Of a DNA stretch of 56,796 nucleotides, positions 409 to 46,129 are shown piece after piece. Every line of letters starts with the position of its first letter. The stretch's first letter is position 1. The notes beneath the pieces are model-generated. The model saw nothing but the letters and a program-made list of their open reading frames with translations, was not told the DNA's origin and made no database searches. Source of the DNA: a virus; IMG/VR virus record IMGVR_UViG_3300042261_000652, positions 64,001 to 120,796 of that record. One strand, given 5' to 3'. A program made the translations under genes and the position numbers.

Positions 409-432
409 ATATATCCTATTTATAGGATATAT
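409..432. promoter_or_regulatory. Perfect 11-bp inverted repeat (ATATATCCTAT-tt-ATAGGATATAT) ending on the AT of the 431 start codon
   Basis: Arms 409-419 and 422-432 are exact reverse complements with a 2-nt spacer; follows a GATAAATATAATAAG box. Confidence 0.45.
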
Positions 433-2603: not shown

Positions 2604-3251
2604 ATGCATAAAGACAAAAGCAATCTGGATATAGTACGCTCATATCTTAGCGGAGAAAGACCGTGGGTCCAAATTGGATATACGGGAAAAAAGTATACCA
2701 AACGCAATGTAGGAGATCGGTGGACGGATAATCGGGGGATAGAGTGGGAACAGAAAGTGGGCGGACCTACCAGAGTCAATAAAATGGCTGAAGCTATTCG
2801 AGAGGCCCGAGGAAAGGACGTATGCAAAAAGTGTCAAAAAGAGATGCGATGGGGAGATAAAACTGATCAACTCTTCTTCCGCAAAACAGGACTTTGCACC
2901 GATTGTCTTATAACTTATGAAACTAATTTGCGAATACTCGGAATCCATTCCGAATATGAGACCATGAAATTGGCTTCCAATGAAATGGGGTTTTTAAAAG
3001 ATGCACGAGATAAAATTTCCGAAACCCTGAATTTCTTTCAACAGGATGGTGGCGATGTTACTATGATATGCAACTCGGAGGGATTTGTAGAACGGTGGAA
3101 AAATACCAATAGAGAGCAAATCATAGAAGATGCCAAGCGAGATTTGAAATTGATCAAAAAGTACATTGCGAATCTTTCCAAACTTAAAAATAAGTGTAAA
3201 AAGATATATGTAGAAAATGCCAAAAAATACAATTTAGAAATTTATGTCTAA
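2604..3251 (+). CDS. Hypothetical Zn-ribbon protein (215 aa); positional candidate for small terminase subunit
   Basis: Lies immediately upstream of the large terminase and overlaps it by 8 nt; CxxC...CxxC ('CKKCQKE...CTDC'); no direct sequence recognition. Confidence 0.4.
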   Translation: MHKDKSNLDIVRSYLSGERPWVQIGYTGKKYTKRNVGDRWTDNRGIEWEQKVGGPTRVNKMAEAIREARGKDVCKKCQKEMRWGDKTDQLFFRKTGLCTDCLITYETNLRILGIHSEYETMKLASNEMGFLKDARDKISETLNFFQQDGGDVTMICNSEGFVERWKNTNREQIIEDAKRDLKLIKKYIANLSKLKNKCKKIYVENAKKYNLEIYV

Positions 3252-6200
3252 CAAGCCGCAGCTTTCCTATCAAGAGTTGATCAAGCAAGAATATACAAAG
3301 TGCTTGGAATCTCCGGTGTATTTTATGAAATATTACGCCAAGATTCAACATCCAGTTCGGGGAACGATTTTATTTAATTTATATAAGTTTCAAGAAGAAA
3401 CTCTTCAGGAGTTTCACGATTATAAGTTTAATATTATTTTAAAATCTCGTCAGATGGGCATTTCTACTCTTGTTGCTGTATATTCGCTGTGGCTGATGAT
3501 TTTCCATAAGGACAAGAATATTCTGCTGATTTCATTAAAACAGGATGATGCGAAGGAAGTTATCGGCAAGGTTAGATTCGCAAATGAAAATCTCCCCACG
3601 TGGCTTAAAGTAAAATGTCTTGAGGACAATAGATTATCACTCAAATTTGCAAATGGATCTCAAATTAAAGCCGCATCAACTACAAAGAAGTCTGGAGTAG
3701 GACACGCTTTAAGTTTATTAATAATAGATGAGGCGGGGCTAATCGATGAAGCGGATGAATTGTGGACTTCGGCACAGCCGACGCTATCAACCGGAGGATC
3801 GTCGATTGTATTATCTTGCGTAACCAAAGATACAATGGTAATAACATCGAAAGGAATAAAAGAAATCGGATCATTTGTAGATAAATCGAAAATTGGCGGA
3901 TATGAAATAGATAAATATAACGTGATGGGAGTCGATGGCATAAGATGTGGAAACTTATTTCACAACAACGGAAAACAGAAAACAAACATTTTAAAAACAA
4001 AGTTTTCGTCCATCGAATGCACCGATAATCATAAGGTGTGGGCGTATAAGCAAAGTACAAAAAGATATGATTGGTATGAGTCATCTCAATTGGAAGTAGG
4101 TGATTTTTTATCACTTCAATATGGGCAAAAAATGTGGGGAAATAATGATGATATATCATCATTTACGCCGTCGATATCGCCCAAGATACATTCTCCATAT
4201 CATCCAAAAAATATTAGTATAGAAATGGCGTATTTACTTGGATTGTATATTGCTGAAGGAAGTGTATACAAAGTCGTAGACAAAAATGATAACTTTGTGG
4301 GAGGAATTCTAACTATCACGTGTGGAGACAATATTTCGTGGGTATTTGATAAGCTTAATTTGACATATAGTTGTCTGGATGGATTACATTATACTATATC
4401 AAATAAAAATTTTATTGAGTTGATGGAATATTTAGGATTTGACGTATCGGTAAAGGCAAATCAAAAATATATTCCTCCTCGATTAATGGAGATGTCTGGC
4501 GACAATATTAAATGGTTATTACGTGGTATTTTTGATGGAGATGGGTGCAGCACAAAAAAAGCCGTAAAACTTACATCTACATCTTGCAAGTTAATAAAAC
4601 AAGTTCGGATGTTGCTTCATAATTTTGGTATTCTCGGAAGTATAGTATCGGAAACGAAAGACAGTTTGAATTCGAGAAATGGAAAAATAAAACATAATCA
4701 TGATTCGCACAATTTAGAAATTTGTGGACGCTATATGATTGATTTTTTCAATCGAGTTGGGTTTGGATTAGAACGAAAACAAACACTCCGGCCACCCATA
4801 GTAAAAATGAATGTTGGTCGTGCATGTAGTAAAGATGTCATTCCCGATTCATTGGAATTGGTTAAGGAAATAGTCCAGGCAACCGGAATGACGTATACCG
4901 AAATAAATAAGCGATGCAATATTCAAGTCAATGGCTACTGTAGTCCGACCAAGTATAAGAGCAATAATATATCTCGGCAAAATGTTATTACATTGTATGC
5001 TATGTTTTATGGATTATTATCAGCCGAAACACAAATTTACTGGAATAATATAATAAAATCCGACGTCGTGTGGTGTGAAATTACGTCCATCGAACATTCG
5101 GAAAATGAAACGTTTGACTTTTCTCTTCCTGAAAATAGTGATGATTTTTGGTGTCATTCTATCATTTATAATGGAATTATTGGGCACCAAACTCCAAGAG
5201 GAGTTGGTAATTGGTTTCATAGAATGTGGCAAAGTGCAGAAGAAGATAATGGCAAAAAGGTAGGAAAGAATGGATTTCACCCTATTAAATTGCCTTGGAA
5301 TTTACACCCCGAACGAACCGAGGAGTGGAGGCGAGTAGAAGGTGAAAAAATAGGAAGTTCTAAAAAAGCTGCGCAAGAATTTGACTGCGACTTTTTAGCA
5401 TCGGGTGACAACGTTGTAGAATTGTCCATCGTAGAATTCTATAAAAAGAATATACAAAAAGATCCCACGGATATTCGTGGAGCAGATCGTGGCTTATGGG
5501 TATGGCAATATCCTGATTATACCCAGACATATTTATTGTCCGCAGATACCGCTCGTGGCGATGGTAGCGATTTTTCGGCAGCACACGTTATTAATGCGAC
5601 GACATTGGAACAATGTGCCGAATATAAGGGACAGTTAGGAACCAAGGATTTTGGAAATTTGCTGGTGGCGCTTGGAACGGAATATAATAACGCATTGCTT
5701 ATTCCCGAGCGGGAAAATGTTGGATGGGCGACAATTCAGGCAATTATAGATAGAAACTATCCAAACTTGTTTTATATGACTAAGGATCTAAAATATGTAG
5801 ATCCGGACACGCAATTTTCAAACAATTACTATTCGGAAGATAAAAAGGCAGTACCGGGATTCACGACAAATATAAAAACCCGTCCCATCATTATTTCTCA
5901 GTTAGAATTATATTTCAGAGAAAAAGCAATACGAATATATTCTAAAAGAACTATCGCCGAGCTTGAAACATTTATTTGGGAAAATGGTAAAGCCCAAGCT
6001 ATGAAGGGATATAACGACGATTTAATATTATCGCTTGGGATTGGACTGTGGGTTAGAGATACCGCCCTGCGGTTACGACAAGAGGGAATAGATATAACAA
6101 AAGCATCTTTAAATCATTTGTCTATGAATAAAATGGATCAGACGCCATTTTATAAGACACAAACGGCTCAGCGTGGACGAGAACAGTGGACTATGAAGAC

Positions 6201-6258
6201 GGGAAGGCAGGGAATCGGACAACACAATACGGAAGATCTGAACTGGTTAATACGCTAA
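3244..6258 (+). CDS. Terminase large subunit (T4 gp17-like), interrupted by an intein
   Basis: Walker A 'KSRQMGIST', Walker B 'LLIIDEAG', then insertion starting 'CVTKDT'; resumes with gp17-like 'IIGHQTPRGVGNWFHRMW' (T4: TTPNGLNHFY). The 1004-aa length exceeds a normal ~600-aa terminase by the intein size. Confidence 0.85.
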   Translation: MSNKPQLSYQELIKQEYTKCLESPVYFMKYYAKIQHPVRGTILFNLYKFQEETLQEFHDYKFNIILKSRQMGISTLVAVYSLWLMIFHKDKNILLISLKQDDAKEVIGKVRFANENLPTWLKVKCLEDNRLSLKFANGSQIKAASTTKKSGVGHALSLLIIDEAGLIDEADELWTSAQPTLSTGGSSIVLSCVTKDTMVITSKGIKEIGSFVDKSKIGGYEIDKYNVMGVDGIRCGNLFHNNGKQKTNILKTKFSSIECTDNHKVWAYKQSTKRYDWYESSQLEVGDFLSLQYGQKMWGNNDDISSFTPSISPKIHSPYHPKNISIEMAYLLGLYIAEGSVYKVVDKNDNFVGGILTITCGDNISWVFDKLNLTYSCLDGLHYTISNKNFIELMEYLGFDVSVKANQKYIPPRLMEMSGDNIKWLLRGIFDGDGCSTKKAVKLTSTSCKLIKQVRMLLHNFGILGSIVSETKDSLNSRNGKIKHNHDSHNLEICGRYMIDFFNRVGFGLERKQTLRPPIVKMNVGRACSKDVIPDSLELVKEIVQATGMTYTEINKRCNIQVNGYCSPTKYKSNNISRQNVITLYAMFYGLLSAETQIYWNNIIKSDVVWCEITSIEHSENETFDFSLPENSDDFWCHSIIYNGIIGHQTPRGVGNWFHRMWQSAEEDNGKKVGKNGFHPIKLPWNLHPERTEEWRRVEGEKIGSSKKAAQEFDCDFLASGDNVVELSIVEFYKKNIQKDPTDIRGADRGLWVWQYPDYTQTYLLSADTARGDGSDFSAAHVINATTLEQCAEYKGQLGTKDFGNLLVALGTEYNNALLIPERENVGWATIQAIIDRNYPNLFYMTKDLKYVDPDTQFSNNYYSEDKKAVPGFTTNIKTRPIIISQLELYFREKAIRIYSKRTIAELETFIWENGKAQAMKGYNDDLILSLGIGLWVRDTALRLRQEGIDITKASLNHLSMNKMDQTPFYKTQTAQRGREQWTMKTGRQGIGQHNTEDLNWLIR
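3817..5172 (+). mobile_element. Intein with LAGLIDADG homing-endonuclease domain inside the terminase ATPase domain (C-terminal junction approximate)
   Basis: Begins with Cys (tgc 3817) right after Walker B. Two LAGLIDADG-type motifs 'LLGLYIAEGSV' and 'LLRGIFDGDGC'; block F/G-like 'VVWCEITSIEHSENETFDF...FWCHSIIYN' ending in Asn. Exact C-terminal splice junction could not be fixed (next residue Gly). Confidence 0.55.
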
Positions 6259-6321: not shown

Positions 6322-9300
6322 ATGCCAAACCAAACACAAATTAAGCCATTTGACGATCAGATTTTAGACGTTAAAAAGCAATCGCTGTATGCGAGATTGA
6401 AGAGATTATTCTCTACCGATGTTATTGTACGTAACGTAGGCGGCAAACAGCTTAAAATAAAAGATACCGATAATATTATGTACGCAACGGATAGAAATTC
6501 GTTGCGTGACAGATTTAATCGTATTCGCTCGACTGCATATAATGCATACACACGTGATTTTGCGATGTCATATCAAGCGGCACGGATGGATTTATTTCGT
6601 GACTATGATTGTGTGGGACCAGATACCATTATTCCATTACCGGATGGATCACGACCTACCATTGCAGAACTGGCCGAGAAATATAAAAATAATCCACAGG
6701 AAAGATTCTGGGTTTTTTCCTATGATCACGAAACCGATTCCATAAAACTTGGGAAAGCATATCATCCAAGGAAAAAGAAAGGCGTCCGCCAAGGTTATAA
6801 AATAACTTTTGATAATGGACAATCTATAATCGGAAGTTTGAAACATCCATTTTTAATGCGGGATGGAAGCAAAAAACGCCTTTTCGAATTGCGTGTTGGA
6901 GATTCTGTAATGCCTTTCTACGAAAAAGAATACGGATATAATAAACATGGATTTAAACGCTATCGTAGGTTATATAACTTTTCGAGAGGATGGCAGCAAG
7001 AGCATAAAATAGTCGCCGAGCAGTTTTATAGACCACTTGAAAAAAATGAAGTGATTCATCATAAAAACTTCAACGGGTCGGATAACACGCCCGAAAATCT
7101 TGAAATAATGGATTGGAAAGAGCATAAACGATTTCATTCCGACCACAACAAAAATGTATTATGGGGCGAGAAAAACTATAAAAATCAACTCCATAAGTTG
7201 AAGTCTCATCCAAATTATGTTAACCGGGCGGTTCATCATTGGAATGGAGAACGTGTCGGGTCGAGTAATCCATTTTATGGAAAACAACATACTATTGAAT
7301 CTAATGAGAAAAGATCAAAATCCTTAAAAGAAGCATTTATTAATAAAGATCAAACAGGAAAAAAGAATCCAAACTATAGAGATGATGTTACGTTTGATAA
7401 TGTAAAACAAAAAGCATTTGAATATTATAAAGAATATTCAAAAATAAACATATGGGATTTTATTAAACACATTCATTGCGATCATTCTACCCTTCAAAAT
7501 CGACTAAAAAAAGAAGGACATAACTGGAAATCTTTTAAACGAGAAGTTGAAAACACTTTAAATCATAAAATAATATCAATCGAGAGCGTTGGAGAGGTTG
7601 AGGTTTATGACGTTACAGTTGAAAAATATGAAAATTTTGCTACGGATAGTTGTATAGTCGGAAACACGATGGACATGGACCCCATAATGTGTTCAGCATT
7701 AGATATTTACGCAGATGAATGCTTGACCTACAATGAAGTAGGTAAAATGATAACAGTCCACTCGAATAATAATAACGTAAAACGAATTCTTGAGAATTTA
7801 TTCGATGAAATCTTAAATGTTAGATTTAATCTATGGTCGTGGGTGAGAAATATGTGTAAATATGGAGATTTCTATCTTAAATTATATATTACTCCCGAGT
7901 ATGGGATTTATATGGTAGAGCCAATTTCCGCATATAATGTTGAACGGATTGAGAATTCTGACCCCTCTAATAAGCGATATGTTAAATTTCAAATTCGTCC
8001 TACAGATACAACACAATCAGAGGTTCTCGAAAATTATGAAGTGGCGCATTTTCGTCTAATTAATGATAGTAATTTCTTGCCGTACGGTAAGAGTTTAATA
8101 GAAGGAGCTAGACGAGTTTGGAAGCAACTATCTCTGATGGAAGATGCTATGCTTATCCATCGCATTATGCGTGCTCCCGAAAAGCGAATTTTTTATACTG
8201 ATATTGGAAATATTCCGCCAAATGAAGTCGATGCTTATATGCAAAAAATGATGGATAAAATGAAGAAAATTCCATACATGGATGAGCAATCGGGCGATTA
8301 TAATTTGAGATTTAATCTTCAAAATATGGTGGAGGATTATTATATTCCAGTTCGTGGCGGTGACAGCGGAACAAAGATTGATACTCTTGGTGGTATGGAA
8401 TGGACTGGAACTGAAGATATAGAATATCTTCGCAATAAATTGATGTCTGCGCTCAAAATTCCCAAAGCATTTTTAGGATATGAAGAGGGAATTAGCGGAA
8501 AGGCGACCTTGGCATCGGAAGATGTTAGGTTTGCTCGCACAATTCAACGATTACAATGTATTATTGCATCGGAATTAGGCAAAATTGCCACCGTTCATTT
8601 ATATGCTCAGGGATATAGAGACGAGTCTCTTGTGGATTTTGAATTAGAATTAACCAATCCATCAACCATATTTGAGAAAGAAAAGGTTGAAATATGGTCT
8701 GATAAGGTTGCGGTTGCTACAGATATGGTGGAAAATAAGTTTTTCTCGTATAAGTGGGCTTATAAGAACATCTTCAATATGTCGGAGGATGATATCGAGA
8801 AAGTTAGAGAAGAAATCGTCGAGGATGCCAAACAAAGGTATAGATTCGCATCTATTGAAGAAGATGGGGATGATCCTGCCAAGCCGTTTAAGAAGATTGG
8901 GGGCAAAGGTGGCGATGACGAAGATGGCGACAAAGATATCGGAGATCTCGGCGGTGGTGGAGGTCTTGGGGGTGGAATGCATAGCAGTGGCGGTCTCGGA
9001 GGTTCAGACTTGGAAGATATGGATAAATTTGGAGAAGACGGCCCGGGTTTAGACGATTTGGCGGACATAGAGGGTGGCAATGAAGAAGGAGAAGGGGATG
9101 AAGACAAGGAAACGGAAGATGAAACGGGTCCAGAAAAGTCTAAAAATATAAAAGAATATGCAGATCCGGCCAAGGACCGAGATCAAAGTGGTGAACACGA
9201 TGCTCGTAGAGATCATCCTATGGCAGAAGATCCGCTCGGACAAGATGCCATGAATGCCAATACAAAGACAAATAGTGAACGTAAAAAGAAAAGTGCAATT

Positions 9301-9501
9301 GCCCATAATTATGAGGGGGGAAGTCCATTGAGCCGATTGCATGAACGAAATAAGCCCGTAGTTGATGGGGCTATGATCAAAAGTTTATCCGAATTTTTAA
9401 ATAAAACAGGAAAGAATATAAAAACGGAGCTTTTAAATGAAATTATAAGGGACAATCCGAATAATAAATCTATGATGGATGAGTCCAACATTTTAGAATA
9501 A
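6322..9501 (+). CDS. Portal protein (T4 gp20-like) with an intein and a long acidic/Gly-rich C-terminal extension
   Basis: Extein resumes with the gp20-like 'DPIMCSALDIYADE' motif; insertion begins 'CVGPDTIIPLPDG' (Hint block A); gene sits directly after the terminase. Confidence 0.8.
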   Translation: MPNQTQIKPFDDQILDVKKQSLYARLKRLFSTDVIVRNVGGKQLKIKDTDNIMYATDRNSLRDRFNRIRSTAYNAYTRDFAMSYQAARMDLFRDYDCVGPDTIIPLPDGSRPTIAELAEKYKNNPQERFWVFSYDHETDSIKLGKAYHPRKKKGVRQGYKITFDNGQSIIGSLKHPFLMRDGSKKRLFELRVGDSVMPFYEKEYGYNKHGFKRYRRLYNFSRGWQQEHKIVAEQFYRPLEKNEVIHHKNFNGSDNTPENLEIMDWKEHKRFHSDHNKNVLWGEKNYKNQLHKLKSHPNYVNRAVHHWNGERVGSSNPFYGKQHTIESNEKRSKSLKEAFINKDQTGKKNPNYRDDVTFDNVKQKAFEYYKEYSKINIWDFIKHIHCDHSTLQNRLKKEGHNWKSFKREVENTLNHKIISIESVGEVEVYDVTVEKYENFATDSCIVGNTMDMDPIMCSALDIYADECLTYNEVGKMITVHSNNNNVKRILENLFDEILNVRFNLWSWVRNMCKYGDFYLKLYITPEYGIYMVEPISAYNVERIENSDPSNKRYVKFQIRPTDTTQSEVLENYEVAHFRLINDSNFLPYGKSLIEGARRVWKQLSLMEDAMLIHRIMRAPEKRIFYTDIGNIPPNEVDAYMQKMMDKMKKIPYMDEQSGDYNLRFNLQNMVEDYYIPVRGGDSGTKIDTLGGMEWTGTEDIEYLRNKLMSALKIPKAFLGYEEGISGKATLASEDVRFARTIQRLQCIIASELGKIATVHLYAQGYRDESLVDFELELTNPSTIFEKEKVEIWSDKVAVATDMVENKFFSYKWAYKNIFNMSEDDIEKVREEIVEDAKQRYRFASIEEDGDDPAKPFKKIGGKGGDDEDGDKDIGDLGGGGGLGGGMHSSGGLGGSDLEDMDKFGEDGPGLDDLADIEGGNEEGEGDEDKETEDETGPEKSKNIKEYADPAKDRDQSGEHDARRDHPMAEDPLGQDAMNANTKTNSERKKKSAIAHNYEGGSPLSRLHERNKPVVDGAMIKSLSEFLNKTGKNIKTELLNEIIRDNPNNKSMMDESNILE
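6610..7665 (+). mobile_element. Intein in the portal gene carrying an HNH endonuclease domain
   Basis: Starts with Cys (tgt 6610) after 'FRDYD'. HNH-like 'HHKNFNGSDNTPENLEIMDWKEHKRFHSDHN'; block F/G 'VYDVTVEKYENFATDSCIVGN' followed by Thr; the flanks rejoin to a gp20-like sequence. Confidence 0.6.
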
Positions 9502-13015: not shown

Positions 13016-14749
13016 ATGAATAACGAAAATAAAAAACTTTTGATGGAATGTATTACATTCGAAGCCGATCCACGGCTGCTTAAAGAATCTAGCGATCATC
13101 CAAATCAGCCATTCCGAGTGAGTGGAATTTTACAACGCAAAGGTAAAAAAAACCAAAATGGCCGTATTTACCCCGATGAAATTCTAATGCGTGAAGCTGA
13201 AAAATATTCAAACGTTTTCATAAAAGATAGACGGGCGATGGGTGAATTAGATCATCCGGAATGTAAAAGAGTTGGAACTGAGATACTTACGAAAGATGGA
13301 TGGAAAGATTTGCGTGATGTTAAAATCGGAGATATAATTCCGACGTTAAATACCACAACAGATACGTTGGAATATAATCCAATCGAACGAGTGATCAACG
13401 AACCATATAATGGTAAAATGATATCTATCATTGGAAAAAATATAGATACATTGGTTACTCCAAACCACAGATTTATTTTAAAAGATAGAAATGGAAAATT
13501 TCTGGAAAAAACCGCACGAGAAATGTTGGATATATCGAAAATAAATAAGAATCCACATTTATCAATTCCAGTTGTAGTTAATAATTGGAATGGATTTGCA
13601 TATGATGTATATAAAATAGATGCCATTCCAACAGAAGAAATATTAAAACACGCATCTTTAGAATTTGGAATTAAACAAACCACGACATTAAATTTAGATG
13701 CATCTGCATGGTTTTCATTTTTAGGATTTTATTTGGCCGAAGGACATTGTGATAATAGAGAAACTCAAAGCGGCTATGGAGTATACATCTCTCAAAACAA
13801 AGGAGAACTCGCCGATAAATTCCGAGAAATTCTATCACAATTAAGTCCAGAATTACAGTGGCACGAAAATGATAAGGGAGAAAACGCCATCATTTTTACG
13901 ACATATGATGCTCGTTTATGGACATATTTATCTAAATTGGGAAATCAATATACAAAATATATTCCCGATGATATAAAATTGGCATCTGTAGATTTACTTC
14001 AAAATTTATATGACTGGTATTTGAATGGAGATGGAACAGTTGTAGGAGAATATGATAGATCTTCCATATGTTCCGTATCCAAACAGTTAATGGAAGACTT
14101 TTACGAAGTAATATTAAAATTGGGAATGACCGGAGTTATTAAAGAACAAGTATCAAAGGATGATTATATGTTCGCCGGAAGATTAATAGAAATTAAAAAT
14201 AAAGTTCCATTGTATAGATTGTGGATTAAAACTGCGAAAGAGGTTTATCTAGATTTTCGATTTATAAAAATTGAAGAAGTCGATTACAATGATACCGTTC
14301 ATTGTGTGACTGTAAAGAACGGAACGTTTTATTGCCGGGATAGAAATAAAGCATTCTGGACTGGAAACTCCTCGGTGGTTAATTTAAAAAATGTCTCCCA
14401 CAATGTTATAGAAATGCATTGGCAGGGAGATGACTTGGTGGGCACAGTAGAAGTTCTCACAACTCCAAATGGAAATATTTTGCGGGAATTATTCAGAAAC
14501 GGAATTAAGTTGGGCATTTCAAGTCGTGGACTTGGAAGTTTAAAGAAAATTTCAGAAAGTTCGGCCATTGTGGGCGATGACTTTGAACTTATTGCGTTTG
14601 ATTTCGTTTCAAATCCCAGCACACAGGGGGCTTTTATGGCACCCCAAGGGCAAGTGGCATTATCAGAAGGCATTATAAAAAATCCAATGACTAATAAATG
14701 GGAACGCACTGACGATATCATTAGAAATATTCTCTCAGAATTGGGTTAA
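13016..14749 (+). CDS. Prohead protease (T4 gp21-like) interrupted by an intein
   Basis: 'GELDHPE' then insertion; extein resumes 'SSVVNLKNVSHNVIEMHWQGDDLVGT...GISSRGLGSL', matching recalled gp21 'GELNHP...MWWKGNDVYG...SSRGLGS'. Extein length is ~208 aa against 212 aa for gp21. Confidence 0.75.
   Translation: MNNENKKLLMECITFEADPRLLKESSDHPNQPFRVSGILQRKGKKNQNGRIYPDEILMREAEKYSNVFIKDRRAMGELDHPECKRVGTEILTKDGWKDLRDVKIGDIIPTLNTTTDTLEYNPIERVINEPYNGKMISIIGKNIDTLVTPNHRFILKDRNGKFLEKTAREMLDISKINKNPHLSIPVVVNNWNGFAYDVYKIDAIPTEEILKHASLEFGIKQTTTLNLDASAWFSFLGFYLAEGHCDNRETQSGYGVYISQNKGELADKFREILSQLSPELQWHENDKGENAIIFTTYDARLWTYLSKLGNQYTKYIPDDIKLASVDLLQNLYDWYLNGDGTVVGEYDRSSICSVSKQLMEDFYEVILKLGMTGVIKEQVSKDDYMFAGRLIEIKNKVPLYRLWIKTAKEVYLDFRFIKIEEVDYNDTVHCVTVKNGTFYCRDRNKAFWTGNSSVVNLKNVSHNVIEMHWQGDDLVGTVEVLTTPNGNILRELFRNGIKLGISSRGLGSLKKISESSAIVGDDFELIAFDFVSNPSTQGAFMAPQGQVALSEGIIKNPMTNKWERTDDIIRNILSELG
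13262..14368 (+). mobile_element. Intein with LAGLIDADG endonuclease domain inside the prohead protease
   Basis: Starts with Cys (tgt 13262) after 'DHPE'. LAGLIDADG motifs 'FLGFYLAEGHC' and 'LYDWYLNGDGT'; block F/G 'VHCVTVKNGTFYCRD...AFWTGN' followed by Ser. Confidence 0.6.
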
Positions 14750-16829: not shown

Positions 16830-17240
16830 ATGACCACGACGGGACTCAAACAGTTAATTAAAGAGTGTATTGTGGAAGTCTTAACGGAAGATCTTTCCGA
16901 AGGATTTGACCCTCTATCTTGGGGGCCAAACAATCCTCAAGAAAATCCATATCCGGCGTGGAATGCTAAAATGAGAACAATGGAAGAAGATAAGTCCGAC
17001 AGTCGACCCCACACTCCACAGACGCAAGGTGATGGTTTTGACGAGTTTCGTAAAGAAATGGGAACGGATCGAGTAAACGAGTTTTTATCAAAGTTTGGGT
17101 TGGGGCCAAATTATATTCCAAAAAAACCAAAAACATATACGTGTCCAAAATGTAAAGGGCAAAATGCCACTTATGCCGAAGAAGGAGCAGATTGCGATGG
17201 AGGACAAAATGAAGTGGTTTTGAACTGTCCCGATTGTTAA
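16830..17240 (+). CDS. Small hypothetical protein (136 aa) with C-terminal CxxC...CxxC Zn-ribbon, paralog of the 16510 gene
   Basis: Conserved leader 'LKQLIKECIVEVLTE'; 'CPKCKG...NCPDC'. Confidence 0.5.
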   Translation: MTTTGLKQLIKECIVEVLTEDLSEGFDPLSWGPNNPQENPYPAWNAKMRTMEEDKSDSRPHTPQTQGDGFDEFRKEMGTDRVNEFLSKFGLGPNYIPKKPKTYTCPKCKGQNATYAEEGADCDGGQNEVVLNCPDC

Positions 17241-17279
17241 TATATCAAACTTAAAATATAATAACTTTACAATTTGCAA

Positions 17280-17312
17280 AATCTTGCATATGATATTGTC
17301 ATATGCAAGATT
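17280..17312. promoter_or_regulatory. Perfect 14-bp inverted repeat (AATCTTGCATATGA-tattg-TCATATGCAAGATT) containing the 17303 start codon
   Basis: Arms 17280-17293 and 17299-17312 are exact reverse complements; the ATG at 17303-17305 lies inside the right arm. Confidence 0.5.
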
Positions 17313-18316
17313 GTTTGTTTTCTGATACCAAATTAAATTATGCCGACATCATTCTTCGGCATAATAAATCCGCCGTCTCCACGAGAAGTGATTGTGACAT
17401 ATCATTCAAACTCGGCGATAAAATTTATGCTGCGCCCGTATGTTGCAGCAATATGAAATCCATTTTAAATCGACATATTTGTAAAATATTCGATGATCGG
17501 AATTGGTTTTATGTTTATCATCGCATAGATGGTGTGCAAGACGTTGAGCGATTCGTATGGGACGCTAATTGTCGGGAATCGTCTATGTGGAAATATGGCG
17601 GAGTTATTGATAGAAAATTTAATACAATATCAATATCCGTTGGCGTTGGCGATGAATGGTGTGATTTAATCAGTCGGCTACATATTGAAGGATTGCGAGT
17701 TGATGCTATTACCGTTGACGTGGCGCTGTCTTACAATGATAATGTGATTCCCATCATAAATCGTATCAAAGAAAAATTTCCCAAGGCTTATTTAATTGTG
17801 GGAAATGGATGTATCAAAGAATGGATTAGTTGGTTGGAAGATTTGGGAGTTAATTGTGCAAAAATCGGAATTGGAGTTTCGAGTGCCTGTAGAACTCGGC
17901 AATATACGGGATTTGGATCAACTACGGTATCATCTTTGATTGAATGTGTAGAGGCTGCCAAGACGATTGATATTATGAGTGATGGTGGGTTGACTGTAGA
18001 CGCCAATGGAGAAGTTTGGATTGGAGATATTAATAAGAGTCTGGTTTTAGGAGCCGATATTGTTATGTCGGGCGCACTATTCAAAAACTGCATAGATTCT
18101 CCATCGATTATTGAGGGCTATTATGGTAATGCGTCAGAGCACGCCAAGCAAACAAAACGTCATATAGAAGGAACTAAACTGCATGTCGAAACGAACGGCT
18201 TGACTATTAGTCAAATGTGTGATTTAATAGAGGACAGTATCAAATCAGGAATTAGTTATAGCGGAGGGAACAAAATATCGGATTTGCGAAATTGTAGATA
18301 TGAAATCGTCCACTAA
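17303..18316 (+). CDS. IMP dehydrogenase / GMP reductase family protein (catalytic TIM-barrel core, no CBS domains seen)
   Basis: 'KIGIGVSSACRTRQYTGFG' aligns with IMPDH 'GIGPGSICTTR' (catalytic Cys loop); 'IMSDGGLTVDANGEVWIGDINKSLVLGADIVMSGALF' aligns with 'IIADGGI..GDI.KALA.GA..VM.GS'. Confidence 0.6.
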   Translation: MQDCLFSDTKLNYADIILRHNKSAVSTRSDCDISFKLGDKIYAAPVCCSNMKSILNRHICKIFDDRNWFYVYHRIDGVQDVERFVWDANCRESSMWKYGGVIDRKFNTISISVGVGDEWCDLISRLHIEGLRVDAITVDVALSYNDNVIPIINRIKEKFPKAYLIVGNGCIKEWISWLEDLGVNCAKIGIGVSSACRTRQYTGFGSTTVSSLIECVEAAKTIDIMSDGGLTVDANGEVWIGDINKSLVLGADIVMSGALFKNCIDSPSIIEGYYGNASEHAKQTKRHIEGTKLHVETNGLTISQMCDLIEDSIKSGISYSGGNKISDLRNCRYEIVH

Positions 18317-19971: not shown

Positions 19972-20295
19972 ATGAAAATTAGAAACAAATTCGTCAGTAA
20001 TAGTTCATCAAGCTCATTCGTGGTGGTGGGAATTAAAATTTCGATGGATCGATTTGAGGAATTGGGCGGCGAAAAAGTATTTGAGAAATTGGCGAAATAT
20101 AGAGATTTCCCCGAAGGTGAGGATTGTGCTATTATTGGTACTCGGATTGGAACATGGGACGATACGAGTGGGATTATTGAGACTAAATCATTTGAGACAT
20201 TACAGGATGAGGCGAACAAGTTAAAGACAACTCTCTCGCCGCTGATGGGGAACGATGTTAAAATCGACATTATTTACGGAGCAACTTACGGATAA
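19972..20295 (+). CDS. MKIRN-leader family paralog 1 (107 aa)
   Basis: N-terminus 'MKIRNKFVSNSSSSSFVVVG'. Confidence 0.6.
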   Translation: MKIRNKFVSNSSSSSFVVVGIKISMDRFEELGGEKVFEKLAKYRDFPEGEDCAIIGTRIGTWDDTSGIIETKSFETLQDEANKLKTTLSPLMGNDVKIDIIYGATYG

Positions 20296-20300
20296 AGAGT

Positions 20301-20672
20301 ATGAAGACTAGAAATGGATTCGTAAGCAATAGCAGTTCATCATCGTTCTTAGTGGCTTTAAAAAAAATAGCACCGTGCAGCCATTGTGGGCGATCCGATC
20401 CCGATTTTTTTGACGTGGTGACTAGAATGGGAAATGATGGATGGGTTGAGGAAACAAAGTTGGAAGCTCGTGGTGTTAAGGAGTGTATAGATAAATACTT
20501 CGAATATTCTAAGGAAGATCAGGGGCCGTTGCGCAATAAATTGATGGCAATGGAGGCGGATGGATATGAAGTCGGGATAGTCGATATTGCATATCACGAC
20601 CAAATCACCGATGACATTTTTCAAAATTTAAAAAATAGTGGAGCACTCACGGTGTTAGAAACGATATATTAA
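20301..20672 (+). CDS. MKIRN-leader family paralog 2 (123 aa)
   Basis: N-terminus 'MKTRNGFVSNSSSSSFLVAL'; CSHCG motif. Confidence 0.6.
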   Translation: MKTRNGFVSNSSSSSFLVALKKIAPCSHCGRSDPDFFDVVTRMGNDGWVEETKLEARGVKECIDKYFEYSKEDQGPLRNKLMAMEADGYEVGIVDIAYHDQITDDIFQNLKNSGALTVLETIY

Positions 20673-20679
20673 TAAACAT

Positions 20680-21039
20680 ATGAAAATTAGAAATGGATTT
20701 GTATCAAATAGCAGCAGTTCTTCATTCATAGTAATGGGGTATCCAGTAACAGAGGATATATTTGCACAGTTGCAGGTGAAATTTCCAATGAAAGATGGAG
20801 AAAGGGTATTGGAATGGGAAGATCGGCTGCAAATGGAAATTGGATATCCTATTAGATTGTTATACGTAAAAGGTGCGACTCAGTATATTATAGGGACGGT
20901 TATTGCCAATGCCGATGGAAACTGTCTCGAATCTGTAACATATTCGATGGATCAACTTAAAGCCTTAGCTCAGCAAACTTCTGAAAAATTGGGTATTAGC
21001 GGTGAGTGTAAATTAATGATTGGAACTCGCCCCTGGTAA
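20680..21039 (+). CDS. MKIRN-leader family paralog 3 (119 aa)
   Basis: N-terminus 'MKIRNGFVSNSSSSSFIVMG'. Confidence 0.6.
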   Translation: MKIRNGFVSNSSSSSFIVMGYPVTEDIFAQLQVKFPMKDGERVLEWEDRLQMEIGYPIRLLYVKGATQYIIGTVIANADGNCLESVTYSMDQLKALAQQTSEKLGISGECKLMIGTRPW

Positions 21040-21049
21040 AACAAATATT

Positions 21050-21556
21050 ATGAAAATCCGAACGTGTTTTGTTAGTAATAGTAGTACTTCCAGTTGTATT
21101 TGCAATTTGTGCGGCAGAGAGGCAACTGGAATGGACATGTGCGCAGGTGATGCGGGTATGTTCGTATGTGTTAACGGACATACTATTTGTCAAGATGAAG
21201 CTGCGGAAAGCTTTGAGCAATGGATGGCAGAGAGCAATGAGTCGGAAGCCCTAGATGATGGTTATGGGAGCGGATATTATTATGACGTGCCTGAAAAATA
21301 TTGCCCATTCTGTCTTATGATTGAGTTTGCTCAGCCAGATCTAAAGCAGTATCTTAAAATTAAAACGAAGATTACTGAGGATGAGGCATTCGCTACAGTA
21401 AAAGCGGCAAATAAACGACGGAAAAAGCTTTACGACGCCGAGTATGTCATGTATACTTTGACCAAGACAGGCGAAAAGATGGAAAATTTGATTGCCGAGA
21501 TTAAAGCCAAATATACAACATATAAAGAATTTAGCAAATCGCTTTATGAAAATTAG
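21050..21556 (+). CDS. MKIRN-leader family paralog 4 (168 aa), Cys-rich
   Basis: Start re-set from track ORF 21020 to the internal ATG 21050 giving 'MKIRTCFVSNSSTSSC'; 'CNLCG...CAGD...CVNGHTIC'. Confidence 0.55.
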   Translation: MKIRTCFVSNSSTSSCICNLCGREATGMDMCAGDAGMFVCVNGHTICQDEAAESFEQWMAESNESEALDDGYGSGYYYDVPEKYCPFCLMIEFAQPDLKQYLKIKTKITEDEAFATVKAANKRRKKLYDAEYVMYTLTKTGEKMENLIAEIKAKYTTYKEFSKSLYEN

Positions 21557-21995
21557 AAATAAATTTGTCAGTAATAGCAGTAGTTCCAGCTTTATTGTAA
21601 TCGACTCGTGTGCCGATGAAACGGAAGTGGAAAGATTGCGCAATCTATATGGCAATAAGGAAATTTTAACCATAGGACCGACGTTTGGTTGTAATAAGTT
21701 TGGATGGGAGTATGGCGAATATTTCGATTTTGAGGATAAATTGATGTTTGCGCTATTGCAAGCGAAGTATGTTCGTGAAACATATCCCAAATGGATGATT
21801 ATGTTGCACGGAGTTTTGAAAAATGCGCTCAATGTGAAAGAAATACAATGGACTTGTGCAGATGAAGGATATATAGATCATCAATCTGCCAGTTATGAAG
21901 GAGAAAATACGGAGATGTTTATCTCCGAGGACAAATTAAGAAGTTTCTTATTTTCTAAACAATCGCATATTGAGACAGGAAATGATAACGAATGA
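21546..21995 (+). CDS. MKIRN-leader family paralog 5 (149 aa)
   Basis: Start re-set from track ORF 21492 to the ATG at 21546 giving 'MKIRNKFVSNSSSSSFIVID'; overlaps the previous gene by 11 nt. Confidence 0.55.
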   Translation: MKIRNKFVSNSSSSSFIVIDSCADETEVERLRNLYGNKEILTIGPTFGCNKFGWEYGEYFDFEDKLMFALLQAKYVRETYPKWMIMLHGVLKNALNVKEIQWTCADEGYIDHQSASYEGENTEMFISEDKLRSFLFSKQSHIETGNDNE

Positions 21996-22477
21996 AAATT
22001 CGAACCAATTTTGTAAGTAATAGTTCTTCCAGTTCTTTTATTGTAAATCGAAGACATGAGTATAATAAAGACCGGCCACTATTATTGTCGTCAGAGCAAG
22101 AGCAATTGTTAAAAGATAATGGATTTCGTTTGGGGATATGTTATTTTCCAAATCAAATTGCCAACGATGAAGTATTTGAGTTGCCATTGAGCGCCGATGA
22201 ACTTGCAATTGCAAATTGGTGCAAGTCGGTAACATGCAATCAAGACGATGAAATTGGATTTTTACTAAGACATAGAATATCATTTATGGCCGATGTTCAC
22301 TATGAGCATAGTAGTATGTTATATGACGGCACATCCGATGTCTTGCTTATAGCCGAAAATTTCGGAAAGCAGATGCAAATGGCGGGTGAGGGCAAAATAA
22401 ACTTTGATGTTGGAGCGAATCGAGCACCAATAACAAGAACGACGGGAAAACAATATTTGGAATTAAGACATTTATGA
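21992..22477 (+). CDS. MKIRN-leader family paralog 6 (161 aa)
   Basis: 'MKIRTNFVSNSSSSSFIVNR'; ATGA overlap with the previous gene. Confidence 0.6.
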   Translation: MKIRTNFVSNSSSSSFIVNRRHEYNKDRPLLLSSEQEQLLKDNGFRLGICYFPNQIANDEVFELPLSADELAIANWCKSVTCNQDDEIGFLLRHRISFMADVHYEHSSMLYDGTSDVLLIAENFGKQMQMAGEGKINFDVGANRAPITRTTGKQYLELRHL

Positions 22478-22782
22478 AAACACGATTAGGATTTGTTAGC
22501 AACAGTTCAAGCTCCAGCTTTTGTATTCTAGGAGTCAAGATTGACACCAATGCTGAAAAAATAATAAACAGCAATCACAGAACACTACCGTCAAGAATTA
22601 GAATTCAATATTCGATTTCACACAATGGTAGTAGATATGTTGGTATAGAAGCATTCCGCATATTGGATGATGAGACGCCCCGCCAGATTAAACAAGAACT
22701 TGTGGAGTCACTTCAAAGGGTCGGCGTTGAAATAAAAATGACCGAAATAGACTGGATAGAAGATGAAGGATATAACGGATGA
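22474..22782 (+). CDS. MKIRN-leader family paralog 7 (102 aa)
   Basis: 'MKTRLGFVSNSSSSSFCILG'; ATGA overlap. Confidence 0.6.
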   Translation: MKTRLGFVSNSSSSSFCILGVKIDTNAEKIINSNHRTLPSRIRIQYSISHNGSRYVGIEAFRILDDETPRQIKQELVESLQRVGVEIKMTEIDWIEDEGYNG

Positions 22783-29566: not shown

Positions 29567-29585
29567 TTAAATCATTGATTATCAA

Positions 29586-29613
29586 GGCGTTGGAGAAATC
29601 CAACGCCTTTTTT
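29586..29613 (+). terminator. Rho-independent terminator
   Basis: GGCGTTGGA-gaaa-TCCAACGCC stem-loop followed by TTTTTT, 20 nt after the capsid gene stop. Confidence 0.7.
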
Positions 29614-33368: not shown

Positions 33369-33390
33369 TTCTTAATATTTATAACTTGAT

Positions 33391-33867
33391 ATGATCAAAT
33401 TAAAGTCATTAATTGAAGAAGAAAATGATTACGACCCCGCATGGGATTATAATATTCATAAAAATCCACCACGCAAACTAATAAAAATTGTCGATAATAT
33501 TATAAAATCCAACTCCATAATAAAATTGTTGCAAATATTAAAACTTAACTCTCCCCGAATTTCATATATAAAAGATAATAAAAAGGAAGCTCTTGCCAGA
33601 TATATCACGGGTACTGCAAATTTTCCACATATTGTTATAGATATGGACACGATACAAGCGGCAGTCAAAGCAGACCCATCTAATATAGGATATGCTATAG
33701 AGTCCACTATAGTTCACGAACTTATTCATGCATACCTTGAAACACGTGGGTTAGATCCATCGGAACACGACGAAGATGCCGTTGAGGGTGCTACACAAGA
33801 GTATATGGATTTCAGAGATCCCGCAGACATAATACATTCTTTACGGATATCATATCCATATTTATAA
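33391..33867 (+). CDS. MIKLK-leader protein with HExxH zincin-type metallopeptidase motif
   Basis: 'MIKLKSLIEEE'; 'IVHELIHAYLE...EHDED'; ATATTTATAACTTGAT box directly upstream. Confidence 0.6.
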   Translation: MIKLKSLIEEENDYDPAWDYNIHKNPPRKLIKIVDNIIKSNSIIKLLQILKLNSPRISYIKDNKKEALARYITGTANFPHIVIDMDTIQAAVKADPSNIGYAIESTIVHELIHAYLETRGLDPSEHDEDAVEGATQEYMDFRDPADIIHSLRISYPYL

Positions 33868-33873
33868 CTTGAT

Positions 33874-34218
33874 ATGATCAAGTTGAAAAAATTAATCGGC
33901 GAAGTTTTACTAAAGGGTAAAGATTTCATGGTATTAGGAAGAATAGATGATGATTGTAATATAGATTCTCTGTGGACTAAAAATACCGAGACCAATCACC
34001 ATCAAATTGTTGGAAAAACATCTCCGTTTCACTCTTATCATTGGCGGTATAATAGCATAGACAATAAAGTTGGATGGTGGATTGATGGGAAAATAGTATC
34101 ATCTGATAATACATTCAAAATATATATATATGCTGTAGATCAATTTTTATTAGATCGCTATCATATAAGCGAGCCAGAACATATATCGATATATGATACG
34201 CCGATAAGATATCGATAA
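33874..34218 (+). CDS. MIKLK-leader protein (114 aa)
   Basis: 'MIKLKKLIGE'; the same ATATTTATAACTTGATATG upstream box as the 33391 gene. Confidence 0.55.
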   Translation: MIKLKKLIGEVLLKGKDFMVLGRIDDDCNIDSLWTKNTETNHHQIVGKTSPFHSYHWRYNSIDNKVGWWIDGKIVSSDNTFKIYIYAVDQFLLDRYHISEPEHISIYDTPIRYR

Positions 34219-40736: not shown

Positions 40737-40801
40737 ATGTATGTAACGTTATTATATTGTATCAATCGACTCCGACAATGTTGTGTTGTTATATGCCATA
40801 A

Positions 40802-41962: not shown

Positions 41963-42709
41963 TTATATTTGTTTTGCGTATTGTATAGGGATAACTTCAT
42001 TGACGACAATTGTAGTTGGAGAAATACCCCCATCGGATTCTATATCATCTCGATCATTTGTAATCTCCAAAACGTGTCTGAGATACTCTCTAACAAGATA
42101 TTCTTCCACTTGAGGCTCCCACGCAAGATTTAATTCGGATTTTCCGCTGTCCTGTAAAAATCGCTGAAGATCTAATTCTAAACAAATATTTCCATATACC
42201 CCCGATGCATATTCTTCGGGGTTTATACTTGTAAAAATCCCAAATACATCCGTATTATTAATTCCGCTACCCCTGCTGCCAATAACTTTACCCGTTTGAT
42301 TGATTTTTTCAAAATTCTCTTCGGTCGTCCAATGGTAAACTTTTCCCGGGTTGGTCTTCACGTCTTTAAGGTTTGAGTCTACCCATCCATTATAAATAAG
42401 ATCTGGATCTATATATTGACAATACTCATATGAATTTAAGTCGTACAACCATTGTGAAATGTCCTTTATAAAGTCAAACGTTTCGTTGGAATCATCATAT
42501 AATAAGTATGCTTCACGCTTGTCGTCTGATAATTTAATCATTACGCCATTCATCAATCTCTCTTCACTGAGATTAAATCTATGAATTAATTTGGAAATTT
42601 CGGATTTTTCTATAGCATAACAAATATCTCGAAGATATTCATACCAATTATCATACAAATCGGAATTATCAGAATCTTCCGATTCCATCAAACGTTTCAA
42701 TTTAATCAT
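41963..42709 (-). CDS. MIKLK-leader protein (248 aa)
   Basis: 'MIKLKRLMESE'. Confidence 0.6.
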   Translation of the reverse strand: MIKLKRLMESEDSDNSDLYDNWYEYLRDICYAIEKSEISKLIHRFNLSEERLMNGVMIKLSDDKREAYLLYDDSNETFDFIKDISQWLYDLNSYEYCQYIDPDLIYNGWVDSNLKDVKTNPGKVYHWTTEENFEKINQTGKVIGSRGSGINNTDVFGIFTSINPEEYASGVYGNICLELDLQRFLQDSGKSELNLAWEPQVEEYLVREYLRHVLEITNDRDDIESDGGISPTTIVVNEVIPIQYAKQI

Positions 42710-43398
42710 AATCGAGATTCCAGTTCTTTGAGTGCCTCGGCTTTATCACTAATATCATACTCATTGCCATCTATCCATATACTATCAACCGAATCATTTA
42801 ATTTTTTTAATCCATTTCCCGCAAATGCAATTTCACTCTCATCCCGATGACCCATCGTCGTTCCTCTATTCAGGCTATTATAAACATAATCATACATAAA
42901 TCCATCCACTCCGAGGGAACTAAGATAATTATATGGGAGATATGGCGTTCGCATCCAATTGTCGGCGGGAATATTAAATTCTTCGCAGAATTTTTCAAAG
43001 TTTTCCTCGTCGTCTATTTCTGCGGATATTCCCGACCCTGGAAGTTGAGTTACAAGGTAGGTCAAAATATCATCTAATACAACAATCTTGGCATTTTGAA
43101 CTTTAAATTGAAGGCCCGTCGTCCCATCTCTTTCGGAAAACATCGAAAGCATTTCTGAATTTATAGAAGTGCTGAGCGTATCGTGTTCGGCAACTTCACC
43201 GTGCTCGGTGCCGTAGATTCCATTAACTAACATATCCCTCAATCCTACCATCGGAGTACCGTGGTATAACCAATCGGAAATTGTCACAGTCTGATTTTCT
43301 AAAATCCACGTGCCCAATTCAGGTGAGGGCATAGATTTTCCATGAGATTCTAATAAAGATTTAAGTTTTATTGTTTTTCGTGATGTTTTAGTCTTCAT
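42706..43398 (-). CDS. MIKLK-leader protein with YHGT motif (ADP-ribosyltransferase H-Y-E / Tpt1-like fold candidate)
   Basis: Start re-set to the ATG at 43398 ('MKTKTSRKTIKLKSLLESH'), which abuts the upstream stop; 'DWLYHGTPMVGLRDMLVNGIYG'. Confidence 0.55.
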   Translation of the reverse strand: MKTKTSRKTIKLKSLLESHGKSMPSPELGTWILENQTVTISDWLYHGTPMVGLRDMLVNGIYGTEHGEVAEHDTLSTSINSEMLSMFSERDGTTGLQFKVQNAKIVVLDDILTYLVTQLPGSGISAEIDDEENFEKFCEEFNIPADNWMRTPYLPYNYLSSLGVDGFMYDYVYNSLNRGTTMGHRDESEIAFAGNGLKKLNDSVDSIWIDGNEYDISDKAEALKELESRL

Positions 43399-43399
43399 T

Positions 43400-44386: not shown

Positions 44387-44395
44387 ATATCAATG

Positions 44396-45106: not shown

Positions 45107-45112
45107 ATGGTT

Positions 45113-46120: not shown

Positions 46121-46129
46121 AGAATATAA

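Follow-up and report, generated by a model that had tools for sequence, protein, structure and literature searches.

A hairpin spanning the start codon of a GMP-reductase-like gene and overlapping its predicted promoter in an uncultured T4-like phage

Two groups of phage elements in which a hairpin is tied to a promoter have been described. In phage T4, a helix hides the AUG and the Shine-Dalgarno sequence of the genes e (lysozyme), soc, 49 and I-TevI in long transcripts initiated upstream; the 5' strand of this hairpin is encoded by the promoter DNA, and the effect is exerted in cis only (PMC3014915). The promoter-early stem-loop (PeSL) cassettes of the T4-type phages RB49/phi1, PST and nt-1 have an upstream stop codon in an A/T-rich block, sigma70-like -35 and -10 boxes and a stem-loop that mostly lies between the boxes or over the -10 (PMC2839356, PMC4122927). 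The PeSL stem-loop, whose stems contain G-T pairs, terminated transcription in a reporter assay (PMC2839356), and the cassettes have been tied to variable gene content and to recombination (PMC2839356, PMC4122927). The locus considered here is a 14-bp palindrome at positions 17280-17312, on the plus strand, of a DNA stretch of 56,796 nucleotides (nt) from IMG/VR virus record IMGVR_UViG_3300042261_000652 (positions 64,001 to 120,796 of that record; hereafter the window, 56.8 kb), where it engulfs the start codon of a GMP-reductase-like gene. With slightly better than even confidence, the palindrome is regarded as a cis-acting RNA hairpin that joins the gene's own promoter to its translation start and acts as a switch responding to the origin of the transcript.

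The left (5') arm of the palindrome, AATCTTGCATATGA (17280..17293), and its right (3') arm, TCATATGCAAGATT (17299..17312), are complementary over 14 of 14 bp (100%) and enclose a 5-nt loop, TATTG (17294..17298), exactly as an earlier reading of this DNA, made from the letters alone and referred to as the sequence-only reading, had described them. Relative to the gene, the right arm covers -4 to +10 and so contains the start codon, in agreement with that reading; the ATG (17303-17305) makes up positions 5-7 of the arm. No other perfect inverted repeat with a loop of 3-12 nt is as long across the window, and none exceeds 12 bp in 40 dinucleotide-preserving shuffles of it, 29 of which reach 9-10 bp only, which rules out chance as its origin. 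The RNA fold of the palindrome region, whose prediction the sequence-only reading had called for, has an energy of -20.3 kcal/mol (z = -5.35; 0 of 200 shuffles equally stable), and the single-stranded DNA fold one of -14 kcal/mol (z = -5.8). Among the 47 gene starts in the window, for which the mean start-region fold is -3.7 kcal/mol vs -6.1 kcal/mol for coding controls (50-nt windows), the start at 17303 is the most extreme (-20.2 kcal/mol), with a probability of 1.00 that the AUG is paired, which bears out the proposal that the stem would sequester the initiation codon as RNA. The stem, which has 4 G-C pairs, also forms in a simulated read-through RNA context of 171 nt. An identical palindrome sequence is found on a second, independently assembled contig (L005, 15 kb, JGI sample 3300047491), so that it does not represent an assembly artefact.

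The dyad has no second copy in the window, a pattern search of IMG/VR did not find the exact palindrome, and no Rfam 15 family matched at the gathering score in the whole window, where tRNA and tmRNA searches found nothing either. A degenerate form of the dyad, AATCTYNYATAT..ATATRNRAGATT, retrieved 21 A/T-rich palindromes from IMG/VR, on contigs that include giant-virus bins, and was set aside since none of these loci encodes the gene according to tblastn; L041 was likewise discarded, its arm sequence matching in a locus that appears unrelated. Inside the reductase gene, a second hairpin of 10 bp, of the type TTATGCCGAC / GTCGGCATAA, lies at 17337-17365 (codons 12-21; about -12 kcal/mol), and by eye the homologous sequence of the relative L030 shows no such complementarity.

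The gene that begins in the right arm (17303..18316, plus strand) encodes a protein of 337 amino acids of the IMPDH/GMPR family (Pfam PF00478, E = 2.7e-30). Its best NCBIfam matches are GMP reductase equivalogs, all under the curated cut-offs, and its 241 homologues are found mostly on phage-like contigs. Relatives start at the position homologous to ATG 17303, with MQ.. or MR.., and the Pfam domain begins at residue 11 of the protein; on these comparative grounds ATG 17303 is taken to be the true start of the gene. The JGI gene call for an identical protein (P0001) starts at Met51 and misses this start.

Upstream of the ATG, a consensus scan picks up a sigma70-type promoter candidate with 10 of 12 matches, which consists of a -35 hexamer, TTTACA (17266..17271, plus strand), a 17-nt spacer and a -10 hexamer, TATGAT (17289..17294), followed after 8 nt by the ATG. 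The left arm of the hairpin coincides with the 3' half of this spacer (its last 9 nt) and with most of the -10, of which 5 nt lie in the arm and 1 nt in the loop. A register alignment of 13 loci shows that the layout is common to 13 relatives, each with a TTAAAATAA(C/G) block, a -35 (TTTACw or TTGAyT), a spacer of varying sequence and of 16-18 nt, mostly 17, a -10 and the ATG. At that spacing the -10 reads TATGAT, TATACT, TATGCT, TACAAT or TATAAT (L030 has TATGAT, like the window), and the ATG follows 6-12 nt after it, which leaves no room for a leader. In the window, the block corresponds to the A/T-rich sequence TTAAAATATAATAAC (17251..17265, plus strand), directly 5' of the -35; the preceding gene ends at 17240, its stop codon lying just 5' of the block. 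In L030 this block comes after the upstream stop codon and is hence non-coding; it may be an UP-like element. A pattern restricted to the promoter gave more than 80 single matches in IMG/VR among those listed and was too unspecific, and a Bacteroidota-type promoter (TAnnTTTG) does not fit by eye.

From this geometry, transcription is predicted to start at 17301..17303 on the plus strand, 7-9 nt after the -10. The mRNA from the gene's own promoter would then be leaderless or have a 2-nt leader, and it is predicted to lack the hairpin since the left arm coincides with the spacer and the -10. When the RNA from 17301-17370 is folded, its AUG is unpaired.

The conservation of the hairpin was followed in about 30 loci with homologues of the 17303 protein (41-78% amino acid identity). 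Four of them have stems in the same register relative to the promoter as the window: L030, with AATCTCGTATATG and CATATGCGAGATT around a 5-nt loop and one U.G pair; L035, with AAATCTCGCATAT and ATATGCGAGATTT around 7 nt; L006, with AATCTCTCATATA and TATATGAGAGATT around 11 nt; and L011, with AATCTCTCATAT and ATATGAGAGATT around 13 nt. The stems of L007 and L037 are imperfect, with 11 and 13 of 14 pairs, respectively, the latter including two U.G pairs. Across the loci the loops measure 5, 5, 7, 11-13 and 13 nt, and their sequence varies as well. In an alignment of six diverged loci (68-84% amino acid identity; L011, 61-67% identical to them, was left out), 90.5% of the cells are paired and 5 of the 14 pairs have changed on both sides. 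None of 500 column shuffles reaches the observed pairing or covariation score, and in slid registers the pairing falls to 24-60%. The T.G cells, present in L030 and L037, are all oriented so as to yield G.U pairs in the sense strand. Covariation in relatives, which the sequence-only reading had proposed to look for, is thus present, and the stem is kept with compensatory changes in the closest relatives that retain the gene, so that the loss of conservation which that reading had named as a refutation does not occur there.

More distant relatives have the same arrangement with unrelated sequences. In L034 (TAATACAAT/ATTGTATTA), L038 (TTCATAG..CTATGAA), L029 (AATAGTGGC/GCTACTATT, whose loop holds the ATG) and L003 (GTTGC-ATACTT/AAGTAT-GCAAC), the promoter spacer or the -10 pairs with the start region through different stems. 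The median minimum free energy between -30 and +15 is -11.4 kcal/mol for the loci with the promoter cassette (n=13) vs -1.6 kcal/mol for those without it (n=10), in which another gene or a divergent endonuclease gene precedes the reductase gene (Mann-Whitney p = 4.6e-5). Since loop length varies, the non-conserved positions co-vary, G.U pairs are confined to the sense strand and the distant stems are unrelated, the comparison points to an action of the palindrome through base pairing in the sense strand rather than as a DNA dyad bound by a protein. As a separate observation, the right-arm ATG of L006 opens an open reading frame (ORF) of 10 codons at 99-128, MRDFLCTIHN*, homologous to the N-terminus of the L030 and L035 proteins. 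This ORF is 1 nt out of frame with the reductase gene and lies beside a T TTT TTA heptamer, and the true start, shifted by a 1-nt difference, is 14 nt 3' of the right-arm ATG; a frameshift or an error in the assembly might lie behind this, or the short frame may be an upstream ORF.

The hairpin also has features of an intrinsic terminator. Directly 3' of the stem lies a T-rich tract, TTGTTTGTTTTCT (17311..17323, plus strand), and stem and tract together, with 15 pairs followed by GTTTGTTTTC, form the longest-stemmed terminator-like site in a scan of 9-27 kb. The sequence has the stem-loop and the ensuing U-tract of such terminators, though with a G-C-poor stem and an interrupted tract. Scored with a re-implemented TransTermHP-style formula, the tail of the window reaches -3.5 to -4.5, where random values average -2.2 and have their first percentile at -4.2, and the four other loci with perfect stems, all with TTTTTTAT, reach -5.1 to -5.8. 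Hairpin and T-tract are intact in L006 and L011 though they lie off the true start codon; in L011, a LAGLIDADG-type endonuclease gene sits between the cassette and the reductase gene. A canonical G-C-rich terminator is present at the same junction in L010, and L036 may have a small hairpin with a T-run 5' of its putative promoter. Conversely, the start-region hairpins of L007, L037, L038, L003 and L029 have no U-tract. Because these five loci mask the start without one, masking of the AUG is, as far as the alignments tell, the common denominator, and termination an added property of the subclade that includes the window.

The fold, its significance, its conservation with covariation and the conserved promoter geometry are what the sequences show, and the proposed mechanism builds on them as follows. 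From TTTACA-17-TATGAT, the polymerase would start at about 17301-17303 and produce a leaderless mRNA in which the left arm is missing and the 5' AUG is free. RNA coming from the upstream genes on the same strand, or from a second promoter-like site at 17234-17262, would contain both arms, fold into the 14-bp stem and bury the AUG. The hairpin would form only in RNA initiated upstream, because the own-promoter transcript lacks the left arm. Burying the AUG would matter for this phage, as its genes have no Shine-Dalgarno sequences and would depend on open start regions. As a U-rich tract follows the stem, incoming transcription would also be attenuated or terminated. The net effect would be to insulate the GMP-reductase-like gene from neighbouring transcription and to have it expressed only from its own promoter; RNA entering from upstream is probably silenced, and RNA from the own promoter probably escapes. 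The repression suggested in the sequence-only reading would thus hold in part, as the stem does hide the AUG in RNA, although only in RNA that originates upstream, since the promoter overlaps the left arm.

The evidence for upstream transcripts that cross the gene is the orientation of the genes only, all genes assigned between 35 and 24216 in the ORF map being on the plus strand. The last gene of this upstream unit lies at 16830..17240 (plus strand), and transcripts from it would enter the hairpin. The window represents the head-gene region of an uncultured T4-like phage, in which a large terminase, a portal with an HNH insertion and a gp21-type prohead protease are encoded upstream of the 17303 gene and the major head protein downstream of it. 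The window genes have no Shine-Dalgarno sequences, and their starts are less structured than the coding controls.

Several points weigh against this mechanism. The start site, the read-through, the termination and the effect on translation are all predictions from sequence. Promoter-like matches are not enriched in the window (78 vs 67.5 +/- 8.6 in shuffles), so that the evidence for the promoter is comparative only. The loci compared are phylogenetically related, and hence the covariation counts and the Mann-Whitney p = 4.6e-5 overstate independence. Two relatives, L001 and L014, have the promoter but weak structure only. The T-tract of the window is broken by G residues and the stem has just 4 G-C pairs, while the imperfect hairpins of L007 and L037 come without a T-tract, which means that termination is not the common denominator. 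A hairpin-containing RNA from the candidate at 17234-17262 would lack an evident purpose. Finally, the perfect arms could be kept by template-switch correction of quasi-palindromes and not by selection.

The upstream candidate, TTGTTA-17-TATAAT (17234..17262, plus strand; 10 of 12 matches in the consensus scan), would, if active, give transcripts that carry the whole hairpin, and it is the starting point of a different explanation, in which the gene's own mRNA begins 5' of 17280, for instance at this site, and the hairpin serves as a classical translational operator in the 5' untranslated region. Translation would then have to wait until a helicase, temperature or ribosomes open the stem, or a protein would add to the repression. 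The complete burial of the AUG would suit such an operator, and the AATATAATAA of the upstream site recurs 5' of two other genes. However, no -35/-10 pair matching the candidate is seen by eye in L030, and 13 relatives keep instead the promoter that overlaps the arm, with the ATG 6-12 nt after its -10. Moreover, such a transcript would be terminated at the stable 14-bp stem and the U-tract behind it, and the varying loop sequence, with no Rfam match, offers no evident site for recognition by a protein, which makes this explanation unlikely. The terminator-like scan and tail scores, together with the persistence of hairpin and T-tract in L011 away from the true start, would be accounted for if the element were simply the upstream unit's intrinsic terminator, overlapping the next gene by accident and without a role in translation. 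Quasi-palindromes are known to be perfected by template switching (Ripley model), and the palindrome could also be a neutral one kept by such correction. Nevertheless, the start hairpins of L007, L037, L038, L003 and L029 have no U-tracts, the right arm always covers or adjoins the AUG, loci devoid of the promoter have open starts, and a palindrome, if neutral, would not come back in this layout with other sequences; a plain terminator or a neutral palindrome is thus considered quite unlikely.

Two further explanations place the function in the DNA. The palindrome might act as a cruciform or hairpin that is a hot-spot for recombination or homing, or as a supercoil-sensitive promoter switch. 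The single-stranded DNA fold is significant too, the genes upstream of the cassette differ among relatives, several of which have LAGLIDADG-type genes on the opposite strand exactly at the junction (the insertion directly follows the left arm in L033, and the hairpin in L011 and L034), and one recombination crossover has been placed in the stem-loop's loop in the PeSL paper. Such a role is held to be very unlikely, given that the G.U pairs of the sense strand and the link between hairpin and start codon better suit a function in RNA, and that homing sites are defined by their sequence, yet the stems differ between lineages. A DNA dyad operator, as the sequence-only reading had offered, would be bound by a dimeric repressor over about -22 to +11 of the promoter and would block RNA polymerase. 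The perfect dyad does sit exactly where operators classically do, covering the -10 and the start site, and the outer AATCT/AGATT and inner CATAT/ATATG are kept in four loci. Against this stand the centre-to-centre distance of the arms, which varies from 18 to about 25 bp with loops of 5-13 nt and thus no fixed spacing, the covariation of non-conserved positions, which a protein site does not need, and the T.G cells in one orientation only. In addition, distant relatives show the same arrangement with unrelated stems, there is no second dyad in the window, and perfect arms of 14 bp exceed typical half-sites, so that the operator is disfavoured to the point of being highly improbable.

The AATATAATAA sequence deserves separate mention. 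At 17255 it was considered as the -10 of the gene and rejected, since the alignment of relatives puts the conserved promoter one step downstream. Followed by (C/G)nTT, it occurs at 370-379, 17255-17264, 40749-40758 (minus strand) and 48601-48610 (minus strand). It stands 5' of three genes, namely the 431 gene, the 17303 gene and the gene starting at 40736 (minus strand), with -35-like hexamers 16-17 nt upstream. It may mark a class of promoters; the motif has no overall enrichment in the window.

Start-codon hairpins are not limited to the reductase gene. The 431 gene, which encodes 699 amino acids and lies upstream of the terminase, has a hairpin, ATATATCCTAT-tt-ATAGGATATAT (409..432, plus strand), with 11-bp arms at 409-419 and 422-432 and a 2-nt spacer. 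At -12.5 kcal/mol it is the second strongest start-region structure of the 47. The second palindrome of different sequence that had been claimed at this gene is therefore real, although it does not take in the start codon in full, as of the ATG only the A and T fall within its right arm. Strong hairpins of differing sequence (-10 to -26 kcal/mol), which either enclose the ATG or stop 0-3 nt short of it, occur at the start of the homologues of the 431 gene in 5 of 7 relatives (L060, L061, L063, L066 and L067), and L062 has a weaker one. In L066 the hairpin is probably not the terminator, as a separate canonical one appears upstream. A conserved ATATGTAT motif overlaps the 5' arm of the hairpins of this family; as a general promoter motif it was discarded, not being enriched 5' of the window genes. 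Because the homologues of the 431 gene carry them too, start-codon hairpins are, judging by the loci compared, recurrent in this phage group. Two paralogous genes of the window, at 33391 and 33874, share TATTTATAACTTGAT-ATG-ATCAAG (33373-33390, 33858-33892), in which the ATG lies in a 3-nt loop of a stem of 5-7 bp.

Endonuclease genes are found repeatedly at the junction upstream of the reductase gene. LAGLIDADG-type genes lie on the minus strand directly 5' of it in L031 (670-1500), L033 (633-1472), L034 (484-1455), L011 (1652-2515), L009/L024 and L010. In L033 the left arm is immediately followed by the insert, whose endonuclease stop codon overlaps the -10, and in L011 and L034 the insert starts just past the hairpin and leaves a short vestigial ORF. 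The junction looks like an insertion hot-spot. Extending this, promoter-embedded start hairpins might be a general insulation device with which uncultured T4-like phages protect leaderless, sigma70-driven auxiliary genes amid heavily transcribed virion genes, and also a preferred site for the landing of homing endonucleases, for recombination and for gene shuffling, which would make them PeSL-like mobile junctions beyond the classical T4 group; this generalisation is speculative and, on balance, doubtful.

Other features of the window concern its setting. Relatives' contigs reach 350-370 kb, and a blastn search of phage GenBank with 16-20 kb returned only a 68-bp match, to an unannotated uncultured phage of 484 kb, and no annotated relative. 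Several head genes are oversized: the terminase large subunit (3244-6258, 1004 amino acids), the portal (6322-9501, 1059 amino acids, with HNH matches) and the prohead protease (13016-14749, 577 amino acids), whose precomputed Pfam matches include intein and LAGLIDADG. Inteins or endonuclease insertions in several of the core head genes would fit these sizes. The major head protein gene is followed immediately by a canonical intrinsic terminator (29584..29609), which reads AAGGCGTTGGA-gaaa-TCCAACGCCTT and then TTTTTAT. Two runs of small genes with near-identical 5' ends, at 41963-49578 (minus strand) and 19972-22782 (plus strand), of which one begins ATGATTAAATTA (MIKL..) and the other ATGAAAATTAGA (MKIR..), suggest tandem paralogue families. 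A stretch of 3.1 perfect tandem copies of the 17-bp unit ATATGATGATATTCAAT (52523-52574) lies between two divergent genes, one at 52029-52442 (minus strand) and the other at 52595-53062 (plus strand), and looks like an iteron or operator array. Long in-frame tandem repeats occur in coding sequence at 54678-55233 and 56325-56796 (periods of 57/189 nt and 54/108 nt); the products are probably fibre-like or repeat proteins.

If the proposed mechanism is true, the expression of the gene would be set by the origin of its RNA alone, through about 60 bp in which promoter, hairpin, start codon and U-tract overlap. The principle known from T4 e, soc and I-TevI would then extend to sigma70-type promoters, leaderless mRNAs and translation free of Shine-Dalgarno sequences in uncultured T4-like phages. 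It would also give a testable reason for the presence of a metabolic gene among head genes and account for the gene call that missed the start. A -10 in the 5' arm and an ATG in the 3' arm could serve as a signature of independently regulated inserted genes in metagenomic phages.

With regard to the known systems, the locus resembles T4 e, soc, 49 and I-TevI in that the AUG lies in a helix of the upstream RNA (P = 1.00, -20.2 kcal/mol) and in that the promoter -10 (17289-17294) lies inside the left arm and loop, an overlap kept in 13 relatives, with the transcription start being predicted. It differs in its promoter, which is of the sigma70 type with -35 and -10 at 17-nt spacing, whereas the T4 genes use a gp55-dependent late promoter, TATAAATA; in the predicted leaderless mRNA, as opposed to a leader with a Shine-Dalgarno sequence; and in the perfect 14-bp stem with a U-tract at a nucleotide-metabolism gene in a head-gene region. 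With the PeSL cassettes it shares a sigma70-like promoter, an A/T-rich block near the upstream stop codon and a stem-loop over the -10. Termination or attenuation of incoming transcription is proposed for both, here from the terminator-like scan and tail scores, with L007 and L037 devoid of a U-tract. Unlike PeSLs, which form a multi-copy family in each genome, in hyperplastic regions, and have a Shine-Dalgarno sequence before the ATG, there is one cassette in 56.8 kb of mostly virion genes, no Shine-Dalgarno sequence and an ATG 8 nt after the -10, and the 3' arm crosses the start site into the coding sequence.

A further parallel is the cI gene of phage lambda, transcribed from P_RM as a leaderless mRNA, with the -10 a few nt before the ATG and transcription starting on the A of the AUG or beside it, and not known to have a promoter-embedded hairpin. 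The short distance between -10 and ATG is common to both, the leaderless start being only predicted here. The T4 RegA/gp32 operators, to which the sequence-only reading had likened the palindrome, also control specific phage mRNAs through the region where translation is initiated; RegA is a trans-acting protein that binds this region (PMC3014915). These operators need such a protein, whereas here the stem co-varies and the loop is not conserved. As loop and stem sequences differ between lineages and nothing points to a trans-acting protein, no search for a RegA or gp32 homologue having been made, this analogy finds no support. The hairpin would work like those of T4 e, soc, 49 and I-TevI and of the PeSL cassettes but is filed as a member of neither family, because its sigma70 promoter, lack of a Shine-Dalgarno sequence and predicted leaderless mRNA set it apart from the former, and its 3' arm in the coding sequence and its single copy from the latter.

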